A stretch of 64,000 bases of DNA from Myxococcota bacterium (GTDB lineage Bacteria; Myxococcota_A; UBA9160; UBA6930), in the NCBI GenBank assembly GCA_965223415.1, contig OZ245002.1, forward strand, positions 1,536,001-1,600,000. The letters run 5' to 3'. Positions 30,251 through 38,657 of the stretch are shown here, one piece after another. Each line of letters begins with the position of its first letter. Within the stretch, counting starts at the first letter, position 1. Both the position numbers and the translations under genes were made by a program. The notes under the pieces are model-generated. The model was not told the DNA's origin and did no database searches. It worked only from the letters and a program-made list of their open reading frames with translations.

Positions 30251-32065
30251 ATGCGTGTGCTGGCGGCCGGCCTCGTCCTCCTCCTCTCGCTCGCGGCTCG
30301 CGCCGACGACGAACGCCGGCTCAGCCATCTCGCCCTCGACGTGATGATCGAGGGACAGGCGCGGGTGATGGGCATCGCCGATCGCATGCGAATCGACGGA
30401 GCCGATCTCTGCGGGCGGAACGTCGCCCCGGTGGTCGGCGCCTTCGCGGCCGACCGCAAGACCATCGATGACATGTACCGCGACAAGGACTTCGTCGACC
30501 CGTTCATCGACGCGGGCATCGAACGCTGGGAGCTGACCCGACAGCCGAGAATCCTGCGAGTGGTTCCCGGACTGCCGGCCGCGGAGGCCGGGCTCGGGCC
30601 GGGCGACCTGGTGGTCGCCGTCGACGGGAAGAAGGTGAGGAAGCGCGTCTTCCTCGACGTTCTGCGGGGGCGCGGGAAGAAGGGCACGCTCCAGCTCGAC
30701 GTCGAGCGCGCCGGCGCGGTGCAGTCGATCCCGGTCGAAGTGCGGATGGGATGCGCCATCCCGAGCCGCTTCATGCACGGCCCGGACATCAACGCCTTCG
30801 CAACGAGCTTCGGGAGCCTTACGGGCATCTACTTCTACAGCGGCCTTCTCCGCTACTTCCCCGACGACGACCACCTGGCGATGATCGTCGGGCACGAGCT
30901 GGCCCATCACGTCCTCGGCCACACGAACCAACCGCGCACCAGCGAGCGGATCGAGGCCGAGGCCGACTACCTGGGCCTCTACTTCGCGGCGCGATCCGGC
31001 TTCGACATCTCGGTGGCGCCGGAGGTGGAAGAGGCCCTGGCGAGGACCACGCCCTACCAGTCGATCCAATGGGGCTACTACTCCCATCCGATCTCGGCGC
31101 GGCGTTCCCTCGAGCAGCGTGCGGCCATCGAGGAGATCGAGGGCAAGCGGAGTCGGGGCGAGTCCCTCGTCCCGGAGAAGGGGAGGCGATGGCTCGAGCG
31201 TCCGGAAGCCGACGAGGCCGAGGTCGACGAGTACACGGCCAGGCTTCGCGAGCAGGCGCTGGAGCTGTTCCGCTCCCATCAGGCTGCGATCCAGCGCGTG
31301 AGCCATCGCCTCGCCACGGCGGGCACCGACGTCTGCGGCCCGCGCACGTCGCCGGTCCTCGGCGCCACCCTCGGCCGGGTCCGCGACTTTGCACACGCGA
31401 AGCAGGAAGAGGTGGAGGCCGCCTTCGGGGTCGGGGAAGAGGTGACGGTCTTCGCGGTCGCCGAGGGCTCACCGGCGGCGGAGGCTGGCCTCCGGGTCGC
31501 GGACCGCGTACTCGAGGCCGCCGGCGATCGCGTCACCCGCACGAAGCACGTCTTCGAACGACTGCGGCGTTCGGAGGGAGGCCCCATCGCGCTCCGCGTC
31601 GGGCGCGGCGACGAGACGCTCGAGCTCTCGCTCCGGTCGGTTCCGGGGTGTGAGTTCGGCGTCATGACGGCGCCAAGCACGAGCATCTCGACCTGGAACC
31701 ACGACAACGAGAAGGAGATGTTCGTTCCCACCGGCCTCGTCCGCTTCGCTCGCGACGACGACGAGCTCGCCTTCGCGATCGCCCACCAGATGGGTCATCA
31801 CCTGGTGGGAAGCTTCCGGACCGAGGAGGACGAGCCCCGAGCCGACGAGCTCGGCCTCCGCATCGCCGCGAGGGCCGGCTTCGACGTGGGCCGGGCGCCG
31901 GCCTTCTGGGACCGTTGGGCCGCCGAGCAGTTCTGGACCATCAGCGACGACATGGACGGCACCTACATCCGGCACGGCGCGATGGCGGTGAGAGCCCCGG
32001 CCATCCGGGCGGCGGTCGCGTCCATTCAGGACGAGATCACTCGTAGTGGAACTCCGCCCCCTTGA
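30251..32065 (+). CDS. Exported M48 metallopeptidase with two tandem PDZ+M48 modules
   Basis: Signal peptide; PAAEAGL PDZ motif twice; HELAH...EAEAD, then HQMGH...EPRAD. Confidence 0.82.
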   Translation: MRVLAAGLVLLLSLAARADDERRLSHLALDVMIEGQARVMGIADRMRIDGADLCGRNVAPVVGAFAADRKTIDDMYRDKDFVDPFIDAGIERWELTRQPRILRVVPGLPAAEAGLGPGDLVVAVDGKKVRKRVFLDVLRGRGKKGTLQLDVERAGAVQSIPVEVRMGCAIPSRFMHGPDINAFATSFGSLTGIYFYSGLLRYFPDDDHLAMIVGHELAHHVLGHTNQPRTSERIEAEADYLGLYFAARSGFDISVAPEVEEALARTTPYQSIQWGYYSHPISARRSLEQRAAIEEIEGKRSRGESLVPEKGRRWLERPEADEAEVDEYTARLREQALELFRSHQAAIQRVSHRLATAGTDVCGPRTSPVLGATLGRVRDFAHAKQEEVEAAFGVGEEVTVFAVAEGSPAAEAGLRVADRVLEAAGDRVTRTKHVFERLRRSEGGPIALRVGRGDETLELSLRSVPGCEFGVMTAPSTSISTWNHDNEKEMFVPTGLVRFARDDDELAFAIAHQMGHHLVGSFRTEEDEPRADELGLRIAARAGFDVGRAPAFWDRWAAEQFWTISDDMDGTYIRHGAMAVRAPAIRAAVASIQDEITRSGTPPP

Positions 32066-33509
32066 GGTCGATGGCGGGAATCTCGTGGCGCTCCGCCCAG
32101 TAGTCCTGGGTGTGCTGCCACTCCCGCTTCGGGCCCCGCTTCGGCAGCAGGTGCATGCTTCGCATGAGGTAGTTGGGGTTGAAGTTCTCCGGGTCCATCC
32201 AGGGGAGGAGCGGCATTCCCGCGTCCTCGGGCCGGAGCACGGGCTCGACGCGCTTGGCGCCGGTCTCGTCCATGTGCTGGAGCAGCCGGCAGGTGAAGTC
32301 CGCGAGGAGGTCGACGCGCAACGTCCAGCTCGCCCGGAAGTAGCCGAAGATCCACAGCAGGTTCGGCACCCCGGTGAACATCATGCCGCGGTAGGTGAGG
32401 GTTTGGGAGAAGTCCATGGGCTTGCCGTCGATGGCGAACTGGATGTCGCCGAGGACGCTCAGGTTGAAGCCGGTGGCGGTGACGATGATGTCCGCCTCGA
32501 GCTCCTCGCCGGATTTCAGCAGGATGCCCTTCTTCGTGAAGTGCTCGATCTCGTCGGTGACCACGGACGCCTTCCCGGCGGCGATGCCCTTGAAGACGTC
32601 GCCGTCCGGCACGAAGGCGATGCGCTGCTGCCAGGGCCGGTACTCCGGGGTGAAGTGCTTCTCCACGTCGTAGTCGTCCGGGAGGTACTCCCTGACCGCG
32701 TTGATCAGCTCCTGCTTCATGAACTCGGGCTGGTCGACGCAGAGCTGGGTGATGGCCGCCTGGTCGTGGAGGATCTTGCGGCGCGTGATCTCGTGGATCC
32801 AGGACTCGTCGATGTCCAGCACGCGGAGCTGATCGGCCAGCTCGTTCACGTTGCGCCCGGGGATGAAGTAGGTCGGCGAGCGCTGCAGCATCGTCACATG
32901 GGCGGTGTCGGCTGCGATCGCGGGAACGAGGGTCGCCGCGGTCGCGCCCGAGCCGATCACGATCACGTTCTTGTCCTGGTAGTCCAGGTCCTCGGGCCAG
33001 GTCTGCGGATGGACGATCTCCCCTTCGAACTCCTCGATCCCCTCCCACTCGGGGGTGTAGCCCTCCGAGTGGCGGTAGTAGCCCTGGCACATCCACAGGA
33101 AGCGGGCCGTGAAGCGAACGGCCTCACCGGTGTCCTGCCGCTCGCCCTCGATCGTCCAGAGGTTCTCCTCGCTCGACCAGCGGGCCGAAGCGATCCGGTG
33201 CTGGTAGCGGATGTACCGGGCGAGATCGTTCTCTTCGATCACCTCGCCCATGTAGGACAGGATCTCCTCCGCCGTCGCGATGGGCGGGCCCGTCCAGGGC
33301 TTGAAGCGGTAGCCGAAGGTGTAGAGATCGCTGTCGGAGCGGATGCCCGGGTACTTGTGCATCAGCCAGGTGCCGCCGAAGCTCTCGAGCCCCTCGAGGA
33401 CCACGAAGGTCTTGTCGGGACACTGCTGGGTGAGGTGGTAGGCGGCGCCGACACCCGAGATGCCGGCCCCGACGATGAGGACGTCGAAATGCTCTGCGTT
33501 GGCGGACAC
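32037..33509 (-). CDS. Flavin monooxygenase, Baeyer-Villiger/EthA-like
   Basis: GAGISG, YPGIRSDSD, FEGEIVHPQTWP fingerprint, GSGATA, ATG; GGGGAG RBS before GTG. Confidence 0.94.
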   Translation of the reverse strand: MSANAEHFDVLIVGAGISGVGAAYHLTQQCPDKTFVVLEGLESFGGTWLMHKYPGIRSDSDLYTFGYRFKPWTGPPIATAEEILSYMGEVIEENDLARYIRYQHRIASARWSSEENLWTIEGERQDTGEAVRFTARFLWMCQGYYRHSEGYTPEWEGIEEFEGEIVHPQTWPEDLDYQDKNVIVIGSGATAATLVPAIAADTAHVTMLQRSPTYFIPGRNVNELADQLRVLDIDESWIHEITRRKILHDQAAITQLCVDQPEFMKQELINAVREYLPDDYDVEKHFTPEYRPWQQRIAFVPDGDVFKGIAAGKASVVTDEIEHFTKKGILLKSGEELEADIIVTATGFNLSVLGDIQFAIDGKPMDFSQTLTYRGMMFTGVPNLLWIFGYFRASWTLRVDLLADFTCRLLQHMDETGAKRVEPVLRPEDAGMPLLPWMDPENFNPNYLMRSMHLLPKRGPKREWQHTQDYWAERHEIPAIDLKGAEFHYE

Positions 33510-33639
33510 GGTACTCCCCTGTTTTGCCGATTCGTGCAGCAAGCGCTGTACCAGATGGCGCCGTCCGACGGGCGACCTTGGGCAGGGAGCCTGCGGCCCG
33601 AAGCCCCGTAGGAGGAGCGACTGGGACGATCGGCCCCAC

Positions 33640-34431
33640 TTAGCCCTCTTCGGTCGCCCCGAAGGCCGGCGCCTCCTCAATGAGGCGGACCATCCGGCGA
33701 AGTGTGTCCCGCTGGGTCTCCGCGTCGCCGGGGCGACCGACGGTCGCCCCGATGTTGAGCTTGCGGATCAGCTGCCGCGGCGGGCGGGCCGCCCCGGAGA
33801 GCGGCGGCATGACGGAGACGAGGGCGGTGGGGAAGCCGGCCTCTTCGAGGCCGCGTGCGATCAGACTCACGGTCTGATGGCAGACGGGTCACGAGGGCAC
33901 CAGTAGCGCCGCTTCCGCGCCGTCACCTCGCAGCCGCTCGACCAGCGCGGGGATCGTCTCCTGGAGCAGGGGCGCGACGTCGACGACCAGGCCCATGAGC
34001 ACGTGGGTGGTGCGGGCGACCGACCCGATCTCGCCGGCCGCCTCCATCTCGCGCAGCCGGTCCAGGGGAAGGTTGACGTTGTGGTCTTCCTCGGCGAACC
34101 GGTGGTCGTAGCCGGGATGGTGGATCTGGAGCTTTGCCGGGTCCACGTCGATCGGGATCTCCCGGACCTGCGGTGCATCGCCGCCGAAGTTCGGGATCGG
34201 CTTCATCGGCTCCTGCTCGCCGGCGATCGAATAGCCCCCGGTCGTGATCAGGGCGAAGCGGGTCTCGGCTGCGGGCTTGGCGAGGCGGGCGAAGGGATTG
34301 CCCTCGGTCCGATACCACGGGTAGCTGCCGAAGGCTTCCTTCGTCTTGCCCTGCTGGATCATGGGAAGCGCCCGGACCCTCCAGGATTCGAACGTGGGCG
34401 TCCAGCTAGCGAGGCTCGTGGTATCGGACAT
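33640..34431 (-). CDS. PrdB/GrdB-family (glycine/betaine/D-proline reductase selenoprotein B-like) selenoprotein, 263 aa, Sec at codon 181 (TGA 33889-33891)
   Basis: GGAGG RBS; ALITTGG, HPGYD...D.N..LPLDRLREM...G.IG; reading through the TGA gives LLVPS-U-PVCHQTVSLIARGLEEAGFPT in frame. Confidence 0.88.
33852..33888 (-). promoter_or_regulatory. Bacterial SECIS-like stem-loop
   Basis: mRNA UGA-CCCGUCUGCC-AUCAGAC-CGUGA-GUCUGAU-CGCA; 7-bp perfect upper stem (33860-33878); loop begins after a 17-nt spacer from UGA and contains GU. Confidence 0.75.
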
Positions 34432-34464
34432 GGGACCTCCCGATGCGTCCGAGCCCGAGCCTAG

Positions 34465-35755
34465 CAGGCTGCGGAAAAACCCCGTGCGACGGGTCGAATC
34501 GGTTGGTACAGGCATACCGGGGGGATGGAGATGCGCGGAACCGATCGAACGCAGTCCACGATGTTCAGCTACGTGTCGCCGGAGGCGCGTGTCCCCGCCG
34601 ATCATCCACTGCGCGTGACGCGGGAGATGACGAATCGCGCCCTGGTCCGGCTGGACGGGAGGTTGCGGAAGCTGTACTCGCGGACGGGTCGGCCGTCGAT
34701 TCCGCCCGAGCACCTGTTGCGGGCCCTGCTGCTGCAGGTGCTCTACTCGGTGCGAAGCGAGCGGATGCTGATGGAGCAGCTCGAGTACAACCTGCTGTTC
34801 CGCTGGTTCGTGGGGCTCGAGATGGACGACCGGGTCTGGGACGTGACGGTGTTCACGAAGAATCGGGATCGGTTGCTTCGGGGAGAGATCGCGGAGGGGT
34901 TCTTTCAGGCCGTGTTGGCGGAGGCCCGCGAGGAGGGGCTTCTGTCGGACGAGCACTTCACGGTGGACGGCACGCTGATCGAGGCATGGGCGGGGCAGAA
35001 GAGCTTTCGGCCGAAGGACGAGGACCGGGGCGGCCGCGGGGGTGGACGGAAGGCGACGGAGCGGGACTTCCACGGTGAGCGTAGGAAGAACGACACGCAC
35101 GCCTCGACGACGGACCCGGAGTCCCGGCTCTACCGCAAGGGGAAGGGGAAGGAAGCGAAGCTGTGCTTCATGGGCCACGTGGTGACGGAGAACCGGCATG
35201 GCCTGGTGGTGGCGGCCAAGACGACGCTGGCCACGGGCACGGCGGAGCGCGAGGCCTCGGTGGCGATGGTGAAGCGGGTGCCACGCGGACGGCGATCGAC
35301 GTTGGGCGGAGACAAGGGCTACGACACGGTGTCGCATGTCGAAGAGCTTCGAGAGCTGGGCGTGACCCCGCACGTTGCGCAGAACGACAAGGGCCGCCGC
35401 AGCGCGATCGATGATCGAACGACGACGCACGTGGGCTACGAGATCAGCCAGCGCAAACGCAAGGCGATCGAGCAGGTCTTCGGCTGGGGGAAGACGGTAG
35501 GCCCGATTCGCAAGGTGAAGCATCGCGGCAAGGAGCGGGTGGGCTGGATGTTCACGTTCACCCAGGCGGCCTACAACCTTGTGAGGATGAGGAACCTGCT
35601 ATGCCCCACGTAGCTTGTCGGGTCGAGTGGAGGGCCCCGTTGGCAGCGAGCCGGGCGTCAACCGGCGGCAAGGCCTCGATTCCGCGCTCCTTTCCTAGCC
35701 AAAGCGCCTCCAAGGCACCGTTCTCTGCGTACCATCGGCGTTCTTCCGCAGCCTG
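34465..35755 (+). mobile_element. IS5-family insertion sequence, 1291 bp, CTAG target duplication
   Basis: TIRs CAGGCTGCGGAAAAAC (34465-34480) and GTTCTTCCGCAGCCTG (35740-35755), 15/16 match; CTAG at 34461-34464 and 35756-35759. Confidence 0.93.
34525..35613 (+). CDS. IS5-family DDE transposase
   Basis: GRPSIPPE, YSVRSER, FRWFVGL, VDGT, DKGYD, RKAIEQVFGWGK, AYNLVRM. Confidence 0.95.
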   Translation: MEMRGTDRTQSTMFSYVSPEARVPADHPLRVTREMTNRALVRLDGRLRKLYSRTGRPSIPPEHLLRALLLQVLYSVRSERMLMEQLEYNLLFRWFVGLEMDDRVWDVTVFTKNRDRLLRGEIAEGFFQAVLAEAREEGLLSDEHFTVDGTLIEAWAGQKSFRPKDEDRGGRGGGRKATERDFHGERRKNDTHASTTDPESRLYRKGKGKEAKLCFMGHVVTENRHGLVVAAKTTLATGTAEREASVAMVKRVPRGRRSTLGGDKGYDTVSHVEELRELGVTPHVAQNDKGRRSAIDDRTTTHVGYEISQRKRKAIEQVFGWGKTVGPIRKVKHRGKERVGWMFTFTQAAYNLVRMRNLLCPT

Positions 35756-36556
35756 CTAGGGCAGATCCTGCGCCTCCACCTCGTCCACGTTCCACCAGGG
35801 GGACATGGCGAACTGGATCGCGTCCCCGAACAGGACGACGTGGCGCGGTGTGGGCTCGACCTTCCCCGCCCAGCGGGTGGTGTCCTCGATCTCGACCTTG
35901 GCCGGGTCGATCAGGGTCGTGCGGGCGTTCGCGAGGCCCGCGTCGTAGAAAGTGCGATCGCAGATGCCGTTCAGCCAGTAGATGAAGTCGTTGGCTTCGA
36001 CCCATTCGGCCGTCGCACGGATCGGCTGGCCGGCCCCGGGCTCGTGGCAGACGGACGCGAAGTGGGAGCCGTCCGCGCAGACGACCTCACTCGAGAGCGA
36101 CCCGCCCTCGAGGCCGTGACGGACCTCCCCGATCCCGGTGAAGATCGCCACCGGATCCATCGAGAATGCGTCCGCCCGGGCTTCGACGACCAGGTAGCGC
36201 GGCTTGCCGGTGGAGGGCTCCCGGACGTAGAGGGACCATTCGGCTCGCAGCCCGTTCGCCAGGCCCGAGACCCGGTAGACGTTGAGGGTGAGGCAGTGGA
36301 AGGGCTCCTCTCCCTCGATGCATCGGATCGGTGCCAGCGGGTGGGGCAGGTCGAGCTCCGCCTCGATCTGACGCTTGCCCTCGGACGTGAGCGCGAAGTT
36401 GAAGTAGACCGAAGGCGGCGAAGCCTCCACCGTGAAGTGGACCAGGGGCTTGTGCCGGCCCAGGAGGATGAGGAACGAATCGCGCAGGTAGAGCTGCGAG
36501 TAGACGAAGCGCTTGATCAGCTTGCGCAAGAGGCGTTGGGATCGGGACAGGCTCAT
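35756..36556 (-). CDS. Hypothetical protein (possibly acetoacetate-decarboxylase-like fold)
   Basis: ATGA-coupled to WS/DGAT; globular composition; LPHPLAP...LTLNVY...RAEWSLYV pattern. The fold call is tentative. Confidence 0.7.
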   Translation of the reverse strand: MSLSRSQRLLRKLIKRFVYSQLYLRDSFLILLGRHKPLVHFTVEASPPSVYFNFALTSEGKRQIEAELDLPHPLAPIRCIEGEEPFHCLTLNVYRVSGLANGLRAEWSLYVREPSTGKPRYLVVEARADAFSMDPVAIFTGIGEVRHGLEGGSLSSEVVCADGSHFASVCHEPGAGQPIRATAEWVEANDFIYWLNGICDRTFYDAGLANARTTLIDPAKVEIEDTTRWAGKVEPTPRHVVLFGDAIQFAMSPWWNVDEVEAQDLP

Positions 36557-38007
36557 GCATCACCTCCGAGCGCTCGATCCAGGGATCCCGATGAGGCCTG
36601 GATCGGGACGTCCGCTTCCAGGGCGAGCTCCTCGAAGGAATCCGCCACCAACCCCGCGAAGCGCCCGAGATCGGGAACCAGGTCGTAATCGGCCGTGAAG
36701 CCCCAGAACACCTGCCCATGATAGGTCATGAGGGCGATCCCGAGCCCGATGTTCTCGAGCAGCGGGACCTTCGGGATCATCGCGAGGAGGCGGGCCCCCA
36801 GCATGTAGAGCGGGACCTGGGGGCCGGGCACGTTCGTCACGATCGTGTTGACGGGACCGGAGGCGAAGCCCGCCCCGAAGGCGAGAGCCTCCGCCGGGGC
36901 GAACTCCGTCGCCGCCATCAGCAGCTCCATCCCCATCGCCTGGCGGGATTCCTTCAGGTGGCGCGTCTCCTGCCGGATCGCTTCGAGCTGGGCCCTTCGA
37001 TCCGCCACGGCCACGGGCAGCTCCACGAACCAGCTCGAGACCCGGTTCCCGGTCTTTTCGTGCTCGTCCTTGCTGCGAAGGCTCACGGGTGTGGAAGCGC
37101 GAAAGACGATGTCGCTGAGGTCGACGCCCTCCTCGAGCAGGAGCGTGCGGAACGCTTGGGTGGCCGTGGCCAGGAATACGTCGTTGACCGTGCAATCGAG
37201 CTTGCGACGGACGGCCTTCACGTCGTCCAGGGACAGGGTCAGCCAGTCGAAGCGGCGGTGCGGGCAGAGCGGGCCGTTGATCGGCGTGTCCGAGCTCTGG
37301 CTCGCCGCCACGCCGAAGAATTCCCGCACCGCGGCGGCGCGGTCGCGGAGCTCGGCGCCCACGTCGCCCACTTCCTCGCGAAAGGCGCGCAGGCCGCGCA
37401 GCGCGCGGAGGGGCAGGCTCGTGTATCGCCAGGCCTCGTCGCGCAGGAGCTCCCGGGGCGTCGGCGCCGGCCGGGGCACCCAGCGCTTGGGCTCGTCCGG
37501 CTCGCCGTCCGGGGTGGGAGAGAGGAGGACCTGCGCCACCTCCACGCCGGCGGAGCCGTCCACCATGCAGTGGTGGGTCTTGGCGACGATCGCGAAGCGA
37601 TCGCCCGAAAGCCCCTCGATCACCCAGGCCTCCCAGAGCGGCTTTCGCCGGTCGAGGTGGTTGGCCATCAGCCGCGACGCGACCCGCTTGAGCTCGGCAT
37701 CCGTACCAGGCTGGGGCAGGCTCACGTGACGGATGTGGTAATCGAGGTCGAAGTGGGGATCGTCGACCCACACCGGGCGATTCTCGATCGGAATCCACTG
37801 GAGCTTCTGGCGATAGCGCGGAAGCTTGTGCAGCACGCCCCGGTAGCCCGCGCGGATCCGCTCGATGTCGATTCCGCCGTCGTCCCGGCGCAGGGGGCCC
37901 GCCTCGAAGATCTCGATGCCCGCAACGTGCATCGGCGTCGTCGGCGTCTCGGTGACGAGGAACGTGTTGTCCATCGCGGAGAGGCGCTCGTAGGCGTATC
38001 GGGCCAT
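36553..38007 (-). CDS. Wax ester synthase/diacylglycerol acyltransferase (WS/DGAT)
   Basis: ERLSAMD, PMHV, HHCMVDG catalytic motif, TVNDV, TNVPGPQVPLY. Confidence 0.95.
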   Translation of the reverse strand: MARYAYERLSAMDNTFLVTETPTTPMHVAGIEIFEAGPLRRDDGGIDIERIRAGYRGVLHKLPRYRQKLQWIPIENRPVWVDDPHFDLDYHIRHVSLPQPGTDAELKRVASRLMANHLDRRKPLWEAWVIEGLSGDRFAIVAKTHHCMVDGSAGVEVAQVLLSPTPDGEPDEPKRWVPRPAPTPRELLRDEAWRYTSLPLRALRGLRAFREEVGDVGAELRDRAAAVREFFGVAASQSSDTPINGPLCPHRRFDWLTLSLDDVKAVRRKLDCTVNDVFLATATQAFRTLLLEEGVDLSDIVFRASTPVSLRSKDEHEKTGNRVSSWFVELPVAVADRRAQLEAIRQETRHLKESRQAMGMELLMAATEFAPAEALAFGAGFASGPVNTIVTNVPGPQVPLYMLGARLLAMIPKVPLLENIGLGIALMTYHGQVFWGFTADYDLVPDLGRFAGLVADSFEELALEADVPIQASSGSLDRALGGDA

Positions 38008-38087
38008 GGCTCCATGTTGCCTCAGGCCGCTGGGCCACGCCGCGGTGCTAGGATCGGAAAGCGGCCCGAACCGTGAGGAGGTGCAGC

Positions 38088-38657
38088 ATGGCACGCGCTC
38101 CCCGAATCAGCTTCAGCCACCTCGGGATCCACGTACACGACGTCGAGAAGATGACGGCCTTCTACACCGGCTTCATGGGCTTCTTCGAGACCGACCGCGG
38201 AACCCTCGACATGCTCCCGGGCAAGCCGCAGATCGTCTTCCTGAGCCGCGACCCGAACGAGCATCACCAGCTCGCCCTCGTGGAAGGCCGGGAGGACGGC
38301 GGCGGCACGGCGCGAGTGGTGAACCAGATCTCCTTCCACCTGGATTCGCTCGACGACCTGAAGGCCCTGGAGGCCGCCCTCGAGGAGGAGGGCATCGAGC
38401 CCCGCATGCCGATCACCCACGGCAACGAGTGGTCCCTCTACTTCGCGGACCCGGAGGGCAACGGCATCGAGTGCTTCGTGCACACGCCGTGGTACGTGCC
38501 CCAGCCGATCGTCGAGCCATTCGACATCTCGGCTCCGAGCGACGAGATCCTGCGCGAGACCGAGGCCCGCTTCAGCGGCCGCGACGGCGTCAAGCCCTAC
38601 GACCAATGGCGCCGGGATTTCGCGGAGAAGCACGGGCTCGAGTGGAACGAGAGCTGA
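38088..38657 (+). CDS. VOC/glyoxalase family protein
   Basis: GAGGAGG RBS; SHLGIHV, HHQLAL, HGNEWSLYFADPEGNGIE. Confidence 0.9.
   Translation: MARAPRISFSHLGIHVHDVEKMTAFYTGFMGFFETDRGTLDMLPGKPQIVFLSRDPNEHHQLALVEGREDGGGTARVVNQISFHLDSLDDLKALEAALEEEGIEPRMPITHGNEWSLYFADPEGNGIECFVHTPWYVPQPIVEPFDISAPSDEILRETEARFSGRDGVKPYDQWRRDFAEKHGLEWNES

Follow-up and report, generated by a model that had tools for sequence, protein, structure and literature searches.

Does the TGA codon at positions 33889..33891 of a 64,000-nucleotide (nt) stretch of a Myxococcota genome (contig OZ245002.1; the whole stretch is hereafter called the window) terminate a protein, or does it encode selenocysteine (Sec)? The list of open reading frames (ORFs) of the window shows two minus-strand pieces here, 33889..35523 and 33640..33870, in one shared frame, and an original prediction made from the sequence alone joined them across a single TGA into one 263-residue selenoprotein of the PrdB/GrdB family. 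Translation of the minus strand from 34431 to 33640 bore out that description of the two pieces, giving a single frame of 263 residues followed by TAA, with the TGA of codon 181 as its sole internal stop. The prediction of one selenoprotein is likewise supported by the conservation of the TGA, its alternation with Cys codons in homologues, a covarying hairpin, conservation downstream of the TGA and the presence of the sel genes. We consider it very probable that a single gene at the locus encodes a stand-alone PrdB-like selenoprotein of 263 residues and one domain, in which UGA181 is read as Sec by means of the hairpin. Its parts are the following:

33640..34431, minus strand: coding sequence of the PrdB-like selenoprotein (ATG at 34431, TAA at 33640-33642), recognized from its translation, the PrdB model match, orthologues and an AlphaFold2 model
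33889..33891, minus strand: in-frame TGA, read as U181 of U-P-V-C, at the same column in 30/30 loci
33880..33882, minus strand: TGC codon of Cys184, the likely resolving Cys of the U-x-x-C motif, overlapping the hairpin's lower stem
33856..33882, minus strand: hairpin of the Sec insertion sequence (SECIS) type, recognized from its fold, register and covariation across homologues
34436..34441, minus strand: Shine-Dalgarno-like GGGAGG, 4 nt before the ATG

The codon lies in the motif S-U-P-V-C-H (...AALLVPS-U-PVCHQTVSLIARGLEEAGFPT), and the read-through peptide across residue 181 would be ...LLVPS-U-PVCHQTVSLIAR. The upstream extension of the ORF piece 33889..35523 is an artefact of high GC content. 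The true start is the ATG at 34431, because the GGGAGG at 34436-34441 precedes it and the N-terminus that it yields is common to all orthologues (MSDTTSLASW in the query, compared with MSDAASLADW, MGDAANLETW and MSDLSSLDAW); a GGAG-rich block upstream of the ATG is also kept in the orthologues. Nor is the TGA an assembly slip, since a contig of one run (X1, possibly the same sample as the genome) matches positions 33600-34489 with 0 differences.

Conservation of the UGA codon and of the downstream frame

A six-frame search of 41 related genomes gave 74 matches in 32 genomes, and exactly one TGA was present in 72 of the 74 (one match had none and one had two). Of 201 genomes sampled evenly across the phylum, 30 had a match, and all 61 matches contained one TGA. 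When the gene was extracted from 30 loci, the TGA stood at the same aligned column in every one of them. These loci fall into five sequence subfamilies, with an identity to the query of only 30-38% and with the motifs S-U-PVCH, L-U-PVCH, A-U-PLDH, V-U-PMCN and V-U-PDCC. The terminal stops of the same 30 genes are TGA (14), TAG (15) and TAA (1), so that these organisms continue to use TGA as a normal stop.

Homologues were expected by the original prediction to hold U or C at this column, and they hold either TGA, as in the 30 loci above, or mostly Cys. Among 34 column-spanning representatives, hand-picked as full-length sequences from the best 150 listed by an exhaustive search, the Sec column held C in 24, S in 4, G in 3 and N, D or W in one each, and Cys occupied the column of residue 184 in 27/34. 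A search of species-representative genomes that had CPVCHQTV among its patterns, and is thus biased towards Cys forms, returned 80 loci with TGC (62), TGT (15) or TGA (3) at the Sec column, that is, Cys in 77/80. The Cys-form homologues are full length.

Conservation was also expected to continue past the UGA, and it both continues and rises. Three orthologues are collinear with the query at 83, 78 and 67% identity; over residues 182-258 they share 68/77, 66/77 and 63/77 residues with it, compared with 149/180, 135/180 and 111/180 over residues 1-180. Third codon positions account for 34/43, 32/48 and 34/54 of the nucleotide differences downstream of the UGA. Because identity in the downstream part exceeds that upstream and the differences are mainly at third positions, these alignments indicate that the frame downstream of the UGA is under purifying selection.

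A protein search returned 441 relatives, the best 120 of which all cover only residues 1-180 (68% of the query); 101 of these 120 are exactly 180 aa long. The closest named records are metagenome-assembled genomes labelled Myxococcota, Deltaproteobacteria and Proteobacteria. Standard annotation thus splits the gene, as had been foreseen, and public records still truncate nearly all members of the family at the Sec codon. Since no NCBIfam model passes its cut-off and the best 120 relatives stop at residue 180, a dedicated Sec-aware model would repair many records.

The SECIS-type hairpin and the selenocysteine machinery

The hairpin AUCAGAC-CGUGA-GUCUGAU that the original prediction placed after the TGA, with its loop at 17 nt, was found at 33878-33860. 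A 7-bp upper stem, AUCAGAC/GUCUGAU (33878-33872 with 33866-33860), carries the apical loop CGUGA (33871-33867); a lower stem UGC/GCA (33882-33880 with 33858-33856) follows after a C bulge on each side. The stem of the hairpin begins 10 nt downstream of the UGA and the loop starts 17 nt after it. Work on E. coli fdhF is reported to give GU in the SECIS loop as the SelB contact, and a spacing rule of ~11 nt from the UGA. The apical loops of the 30 TGA loci (CGUGA, GGUCG, CGUGG and CGUUG) all contain GU.

An ungapped alignment shows the hairpins of the 30 TGA loci in one common register: 92% of the cells are paired there, a share that drops to 23-34% once the 3' arm is shifted by 1-3 columns. Two pairs show compensatory changes among these loci, pair 21/37 (CG 23, UA 6) and pair 25/33 (AU 15, GC 7, UA 6). 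The covariation score was reached by 0/500 shuffles, a count that overstates independence because the compared loci are related to one another. It is this comparison of homologues, not the folding energy, that places the hairpin beyond chance.

The constraint of the coding sequence was controlled for with 77 Cys-form genes that encode the same peptide, CPVCHQTV. All seven upper-stem pairs are present in 28/30 TGA forms, compared with 2/77 Cys forms; the Cys forms have a mean of 5.1 pairs and a mean folding free energy of -7.7 kcal/mol, the TGA forms a mean of -13.2 kcal/mol. Hence the structure is kept only where the UGA is decoded, and this difference, together with the covariation, supports the identification of the hairpin as a SECIS element. 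Comparison of Sec forms with Cys forms also provides a reusable control by which a hairpin kept for decoding can be told from one kept for the protein. An Rfam scan of 33700-34000 at E-values up to 10 yielded no SECIS family, its three matches being weak and unrelated; bacterial SECIS elements may be poorly covered there.

The sel genes, whose presence the original prediction had made a point to check, are all found in the source genome with scores above the curated cut-offs: selA (497 bits), selB (267.2 bits, cut-off 242.25, with the GTPase and SelB winged-helix domains), selD (252.9 bits) and tRNA-Sec (selC, 69.4 bits), the last of which ARAGORN also reports as tRNA-SeC with anticodon tca. 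We envisage that SelB carrying Sec-tRNA(Sec) would bind the hairpin while the ribosome stands at UGA181, so that this codon would be read through and ordinary UGA stops would not. This decoding step is well supported.

Family membership and alternative readings

The Pfam model GRDB (PF07355) is passed with 35.4 bits (cut-off 22) over residues 41-177, which correspond to profile positions 210-344 of 347. That match (window positions ~33901-34311) stops four residues short of the Sec. UGA-truncated sequences may have gone into the model, which would account for the C-terminal third of these proteins never being covered by Pfam annotation. The best NCBIfam model is PrdB (TIGR04483), matched at 118.4 bits (E = 3.2e-34) over residues 47-259, that is, across the UGA, and all 60 members of our family alignment match it as well. 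One of four relatives scored singly, the 241-aa Cys form P0170, passes the PrdB equivalog cut-off with 453.2 bits; BLASTP aligns the query to it with 29% identity over 213 residues (E = 9e-34), and U181-x-x-C184 falls without gaps on its C151-x-x-C154. This gapless alignment puts U181 at the PrdB active-site position, in agreement with the earlier claim that the U-x-x-C motif occupies the catalytic site of PrdB/GrdB.

AlphaFold2, run on the 60-sequence alignment, predicts one domain (pLDDT 95.5, pTM 0.94) in which a strand at 174-178 leads into U181, followed by a helix at 182-197 and then by three more strands and helices; on this model a third of the fold would be missing from a product of 180 residues. 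A sequence search of the PDB found no relative (best E-value 0.11), and Foldseek found no match in the PDB at E <= 0.001 (best TM-score ~0.29). A wide VIA-align search peaked at Z 8.9 with LacI-type and SDR-type alpha/beta proteins (132 residues, root-mean-square deviation 3.2), which is in the range of common arrangements. As modelled, the fold is a Rossmann-like alpha/beta sandwich and gives no functional lead.

The source genome contains four PrdB-like paralogues, and its relatives have one to five matches per genome. Besides the gene described here, they are:

G000:C1:1347614-1348249, minus strand: PrdB-like paralogue (locus L054)
G000:C1:5107559-5108197, plus strand: PrdB-like paralogue (L055)
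G000:C1:3014507-3014998, plus strand: PrdB-like paralogue (L056)

Each of the three has one in-frame TGA and an in-register hairpin, with the motifs V-U-PDCC, L-U-PVCH and V-U-PLCP, respectively. The family is multi-copy and entirely of the Sec type in the source lineage.

Two alternatives would leave Sec out of the protein. If the TGA were a true stop, the locus would be a pseudogene or would encode a genuine 180-residue protein with a remnant frame behind it, and gene callers do give 180-aa products for this gene and its relatives. The supposed stop, however, occupies the same column in 30/30 loci, down to ~30% identity; the 77 residues behind it are better conserved than the 180 before it, with third-position substitutions dominating; the predicted domain would need its C-terminal strands and helices; and the Cys-form homologues run the full length. 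We regard a 180-residue product as extremely unlikely. The UGA might also be read by another route, either a genome-wide reassignment to Trp or Gly or a suppressor. Such a route could draw on the database fragment P0124 (169 aa, 58% identical to the query), in which the Sec column holds Gly and the C-terminus is garbled, as though the gene had been called with a genetic code (table 25) that assigns TGA to Gly. Against it, 14/30 family genes end in TGA, the internal TGA is always accompanied by the hairpin, the full Sec machinery is present and the residue that alternates at the column is Cys, so that we take the chance of non-Sec decoding to be next to negligible.

A different question is whether the protein serves in Stickland-type reduction, as PrdB in a genuine D-proline reductase or as the GrdB-type subunit in a reductase for glycine, sarcosine or betaine. 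Its best NCBIfam match is to PrdB, its length and the position of U-x-x-C agree with those of the PrdB-equivalog protein (the clostridial model TIGR04483 has 238 positions), JGI calls relatives 'D-proline reductase (dithiol) PrdB', and marine surveys of 2005 and 2008, in their passages on the family, file pfam07355 proteins with UxxC under PrdB. Yet identity to the equivalog protein is only 29%, the score is 118.4 bits where the equivalog cut-off is 300, an extra N-terminal helical segment of ~45 residues is predicted here, and the neighbourhood is of an aerobic type (monooxygenase, WS/DGAT). GrdB, GrdF and GrdH (TIGR01917, NF040794 and NF040795; PF07355) share a common catalytic region with this protein and are matched only in their C-terminal third (profile positions ~262-415), whereas the N-terminal ~260 residues of these 431-435-position models are absent and the scores of 39-50 bits compare with cut-offs of 602-800 (GrdF, 49.9 vs 800; GrdH, 43.5 vs 775). 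PF09338, the PrdA/GrdE family, was found in 0/41 genomes, 32 of which have the PrdB-like family and which include the source genome (97% complete, one contig), in a search in which no positive control gave a signal; PF04723 (GrdA) was not found in the source genome, again with no control genome giving one. The same negative results, with the same limit, are consistent with the description of the protein as an orphan in the original prediction. Genes of the prd or grd type never occur among the neighbours, where a flavin monooxygenase, acyl-CoA dehydrogenases, a P450 or an SDR is found instead, and there are four paralogues in one genome. Because neither a pyruvoyl partner (PrdA/GrdE) nor GrdA was found, the protein is probably not a subunit of D-proline or glycine reductase; we consider a Stickland-type reductase subunit very improbable and find the PrdB-like protein best described as stand-alone.

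The analogy of PrdB and GrdB, together with the location of U-x-x-C immediately ahead of a helix, suggests that U181 and Cys184 of this stand-alone selenoprotein could act as a redox pair of selenol and thiol (selenenylsulfide). In this scheme the selenolate would be the nucleophile, with either the disulfide of a partner or a bound substrate as its target; resolution of the adduct by Cys184 would yield a selenenylsulfide, whose Se-S bond a cellular dithiol such as thioredoxin would reduce again.

Several observations weigh against the reading of the locus as a PrdB-like selenoprotein or against parts of it. We infer the actual insertion of Sec at UGA181 from sequence comparison. The energy of the hairpin is by itself unexceptional (-25 kcal/mol for a fold of 66 nt, z = -1.64, with 12/200 shuffles as stable); part of its conservation must be due to the protein, since it lies in coding sequence, and to this is added the kinship of the compared loci noted above. 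Besides the PrdB equivalog cut-off of 300 bits, the GrdB cut-off (39.3 vs 602.2 bits, TIGR01917) and a subfamily cut-off (46 vs 65.45 bits, TIGR01918) are not reached. One subfamily has the motif A-U-P-L-D-H, that is, U-x-x-D without a resolving Cys, so a resolving Cys is not universal in the wider family. No neighbour of the gene is conserved, and the proposed chemistry is therefore argued by analogy only. An insertion sequence (IS) 29 nt upstream of the gene, described below, may leave this copy poorly expressed or silent. The U-x-x-D subfamily comprises L025, L026, L032, L037, L038 and L042, and also L139, L140, L146, L149 and L153; if these proteins are active, their Sec must act without an intramolecular selenenylsulfide.

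The selenoprotein was called hidden in the original prediction, which overstates its novelty: 'Proline reductase PrdB' (pfam07355, UxxC), together with Cys homologues, is already listed in surveys of marine selenoproteomes by Zhang, Gladyshev and co-workers (PMC1088965, 2005; PMC2398784, 2008), which in their passages on the family count it among the most abundant marine selenoprotein families. The listed counts are 42 sequences of the PrdB family from the Sargasso Sea (PMC1088965) and 235 Sec forms and 110 Cys forms in the Global Ocean Sampling (GOS) data (PMC2398784). In the same passages the family is treated as a proline reductase subunit (PMC1088965, PMC2398784), while PrdA has 0 occurrences in the text of the GOS paper (PMC2398784). 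Passages in reviews give U-x-x-C for both PrdB and GrdB. The gene described here, with pfam07355 and Sec in U-x-x-C, matches the survey family by the definition given in Table 2 of PMC2398784, and differs in that the partner was looked for and not found and that one lineage of the phylum carries the family in multiple copies. It belongs to a selenoprotein family already known from marine surveys, so that the prediction is right, though of rather modest novelty.

'Proline reductase' is probably a misnomer where these stand-alone proteins are concerned. We suggest, tentatively, that the 'proline reductase PrdB' of aerobic and marine metagenomes is a distinct class of stand-alone selenol/thiol enzymes and not a set of reductase subunits. 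If so, it would carry out a reductive step that depends on selenium and has no described counterpart, in the aerobic metabolism of lipids or xenobiotics. The class would have expanded in a Myxococcota-like order, with up to five Sec-containing matches per genome and at least five subfamilies, one of them U-x-x-D, beside changing sets of neighbours (flavin monooxygenase, P450, acyl-CoA dehydrogenases, Rieske and luciferase-like monooxygenases, acyl-CoA carboxylase). The family is of interest as one that is abundant in ocean surveys, multi-copy in a lineage and without a similar sequence in the PDB. A literature search for stand-alone PrdB-like or GrdB-like proteins turned up only fluoroacetate metabolism of Synergistota, which is not relevant here, and one for selenoproteins in Myxococcota found nothing relevant.

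The Cys forms, found in Bradyrhizobium, Rhodopseudomonas, Belnapia and many Alpha- and Betaproteobacteria, are of the same length class, share the motif C-P-V-C-H-Q-T-V and are 32-40% identical to the query. They differ from it in having TGC or TGT in place of TGA and in not maintaining the hairpin (2/77 with all seven pairs).

Gene neighbourhood and the upstream insertion sequence

Downstream of the selenoprotein gene, at a distance of 127 nt, lies a gene for a flavin-binding monooxygenase (32037-33512, minus strand). Upstream, beyond the IS, are a gene of no recognized family and a WS/DGAT gene:

34460..35760, plus strand: IS5-family IS of 1301 bp, with a transposase gene at 34525-35613 (plus strand), recognized from its inverted repeats and from DUF772 and DDE_Tnp_1
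35756-36556, minus strand: 266-aa ORF with no Pfam family; overlaps the end of the WS/DGAT gene by 4 nt
36553-38094, minus strand: WS/DGAT wax-ester synthase gene

The neighbours of the closest orthologues differ from these and from each other. After one orthologue come two acyl-CoA dehydrogenases; another is preceded by an SDR on its upstream side, with a P450 on the downstream side; and the third has an SDR, TetR, a thioesterase and an amidase nearby. The three other paralogues of the source genome adjoin acyl-CoA carboxylase and MAPEG genes, Rieske and luciferase-like monooxygenases, and a kinase-like gene. No conserved partner emerged from the flanks (~5.5 kb) of 48 Sec-form loci, where the largest neighbour cluster comprised 7 loci, or from 77 Cys-form loci, where no neighbour was common to more than 21 and the commonest, an SLT transglycosylase, occurred in that many loci, from related genomes. 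The recurring oxygenase and acyl-CoA genes are only a hint as to the substrate. The sole subfamily-specific link is an acyl-CoA carboxylase beside 4/13 genes of subfamily D (V-U-PDCC). At L054 and three further subfamily-D loci a fused biotin carboxylase and carboxyltransferase of 1125 aa is encoded 116-845 nt downstream on the same strand; the genomes that show this link may be close kin.

The IS has terminal inverted repeats of 25 nt that are 92% complementary, with CTAG at both ends. It lies between the selenoprotein gene and the co-directional ORF 35756-36556, whose stop codon is within the right-hand CTAG, and its near end is 29 nt upstream of the ATG at 34431. The genome contains nine copies at 100% identity, which points to a recent insertion, and 13 further matches at 72% that represent a related IS; the depth of the contig over the IS is ~8 times that of its flanks. 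Before the insertion, the 266-aa gene was 29 nt upstream of the selenoprotein gene, and the WS/DGAT gene, the 266-aa gene, the PrdB-like gene and the flavin monooxygenase gene may formerly have made up an operon.

It is possible, if somewhat doubtful, that an intact selenoprotein gene is in this strain cut off from transcription, the IS having broken a likely unit of WS/DGAT, 266-aa, PrdB-like and monooxygenase genes. The structure of the element at 34460-35760, with its 25-nt repeats and with the stop codon of the upstream gene in the CTAG, speaks for this, as do the nine identical copies with the recent insertion that they imply. So does a terminator-like hairpin in the end of the IS (34493-34481, on the strand of the selenoprotein gene). 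No sigma-70-like promoter was found in 33300-34700 by a scan that was limited to the sigma-70 consensus in a high-GC organism, a limit that lessens the weight of this result. Contigs of four runs all join the gene to the end of the IS, and no joint free of the IS was seen. On the other side, the ends of IS elements often carry outward promoters, the coding sequence is without decay, and the former operon is deduced from spacing only.

Two further observations concern Sec in this genome and its relatives. In two cases SelD carries a pyridine-nucleotide-disulfide oxidoreductase domain as an N-terminal fusion (770 and 738 aa), and in one relative the fusion gene is ~3 kb from an orthologue of the PrdB-like gene:

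L010:1375-3687 (G000:C1 ~562576-564888), minus strand: SelD fusion gene
L052:5984-8200, minus strand: SelD fusion gene

A crude genome scan for TGA codons that are flanked on either side by an open frame and accompanied by a hairpin gave 76 matches, which in a high-GC genome are mostly due to chance. It recovered all four PrdB-like paralogues and several redoxin-like candidates with W-U-P-x-C. The following candidates came from the scan:

G000:C1:1053986, 1320935, 1621722, 2980801, 4271195, 1678428 and 4448273, minus strand: candidate in-frame TGA codons with a hairpin

Their contexts are W-U-P-P/Y/F-C, FTPG-U-T and T-U-PPF, and several have the apical loop AGUUG.

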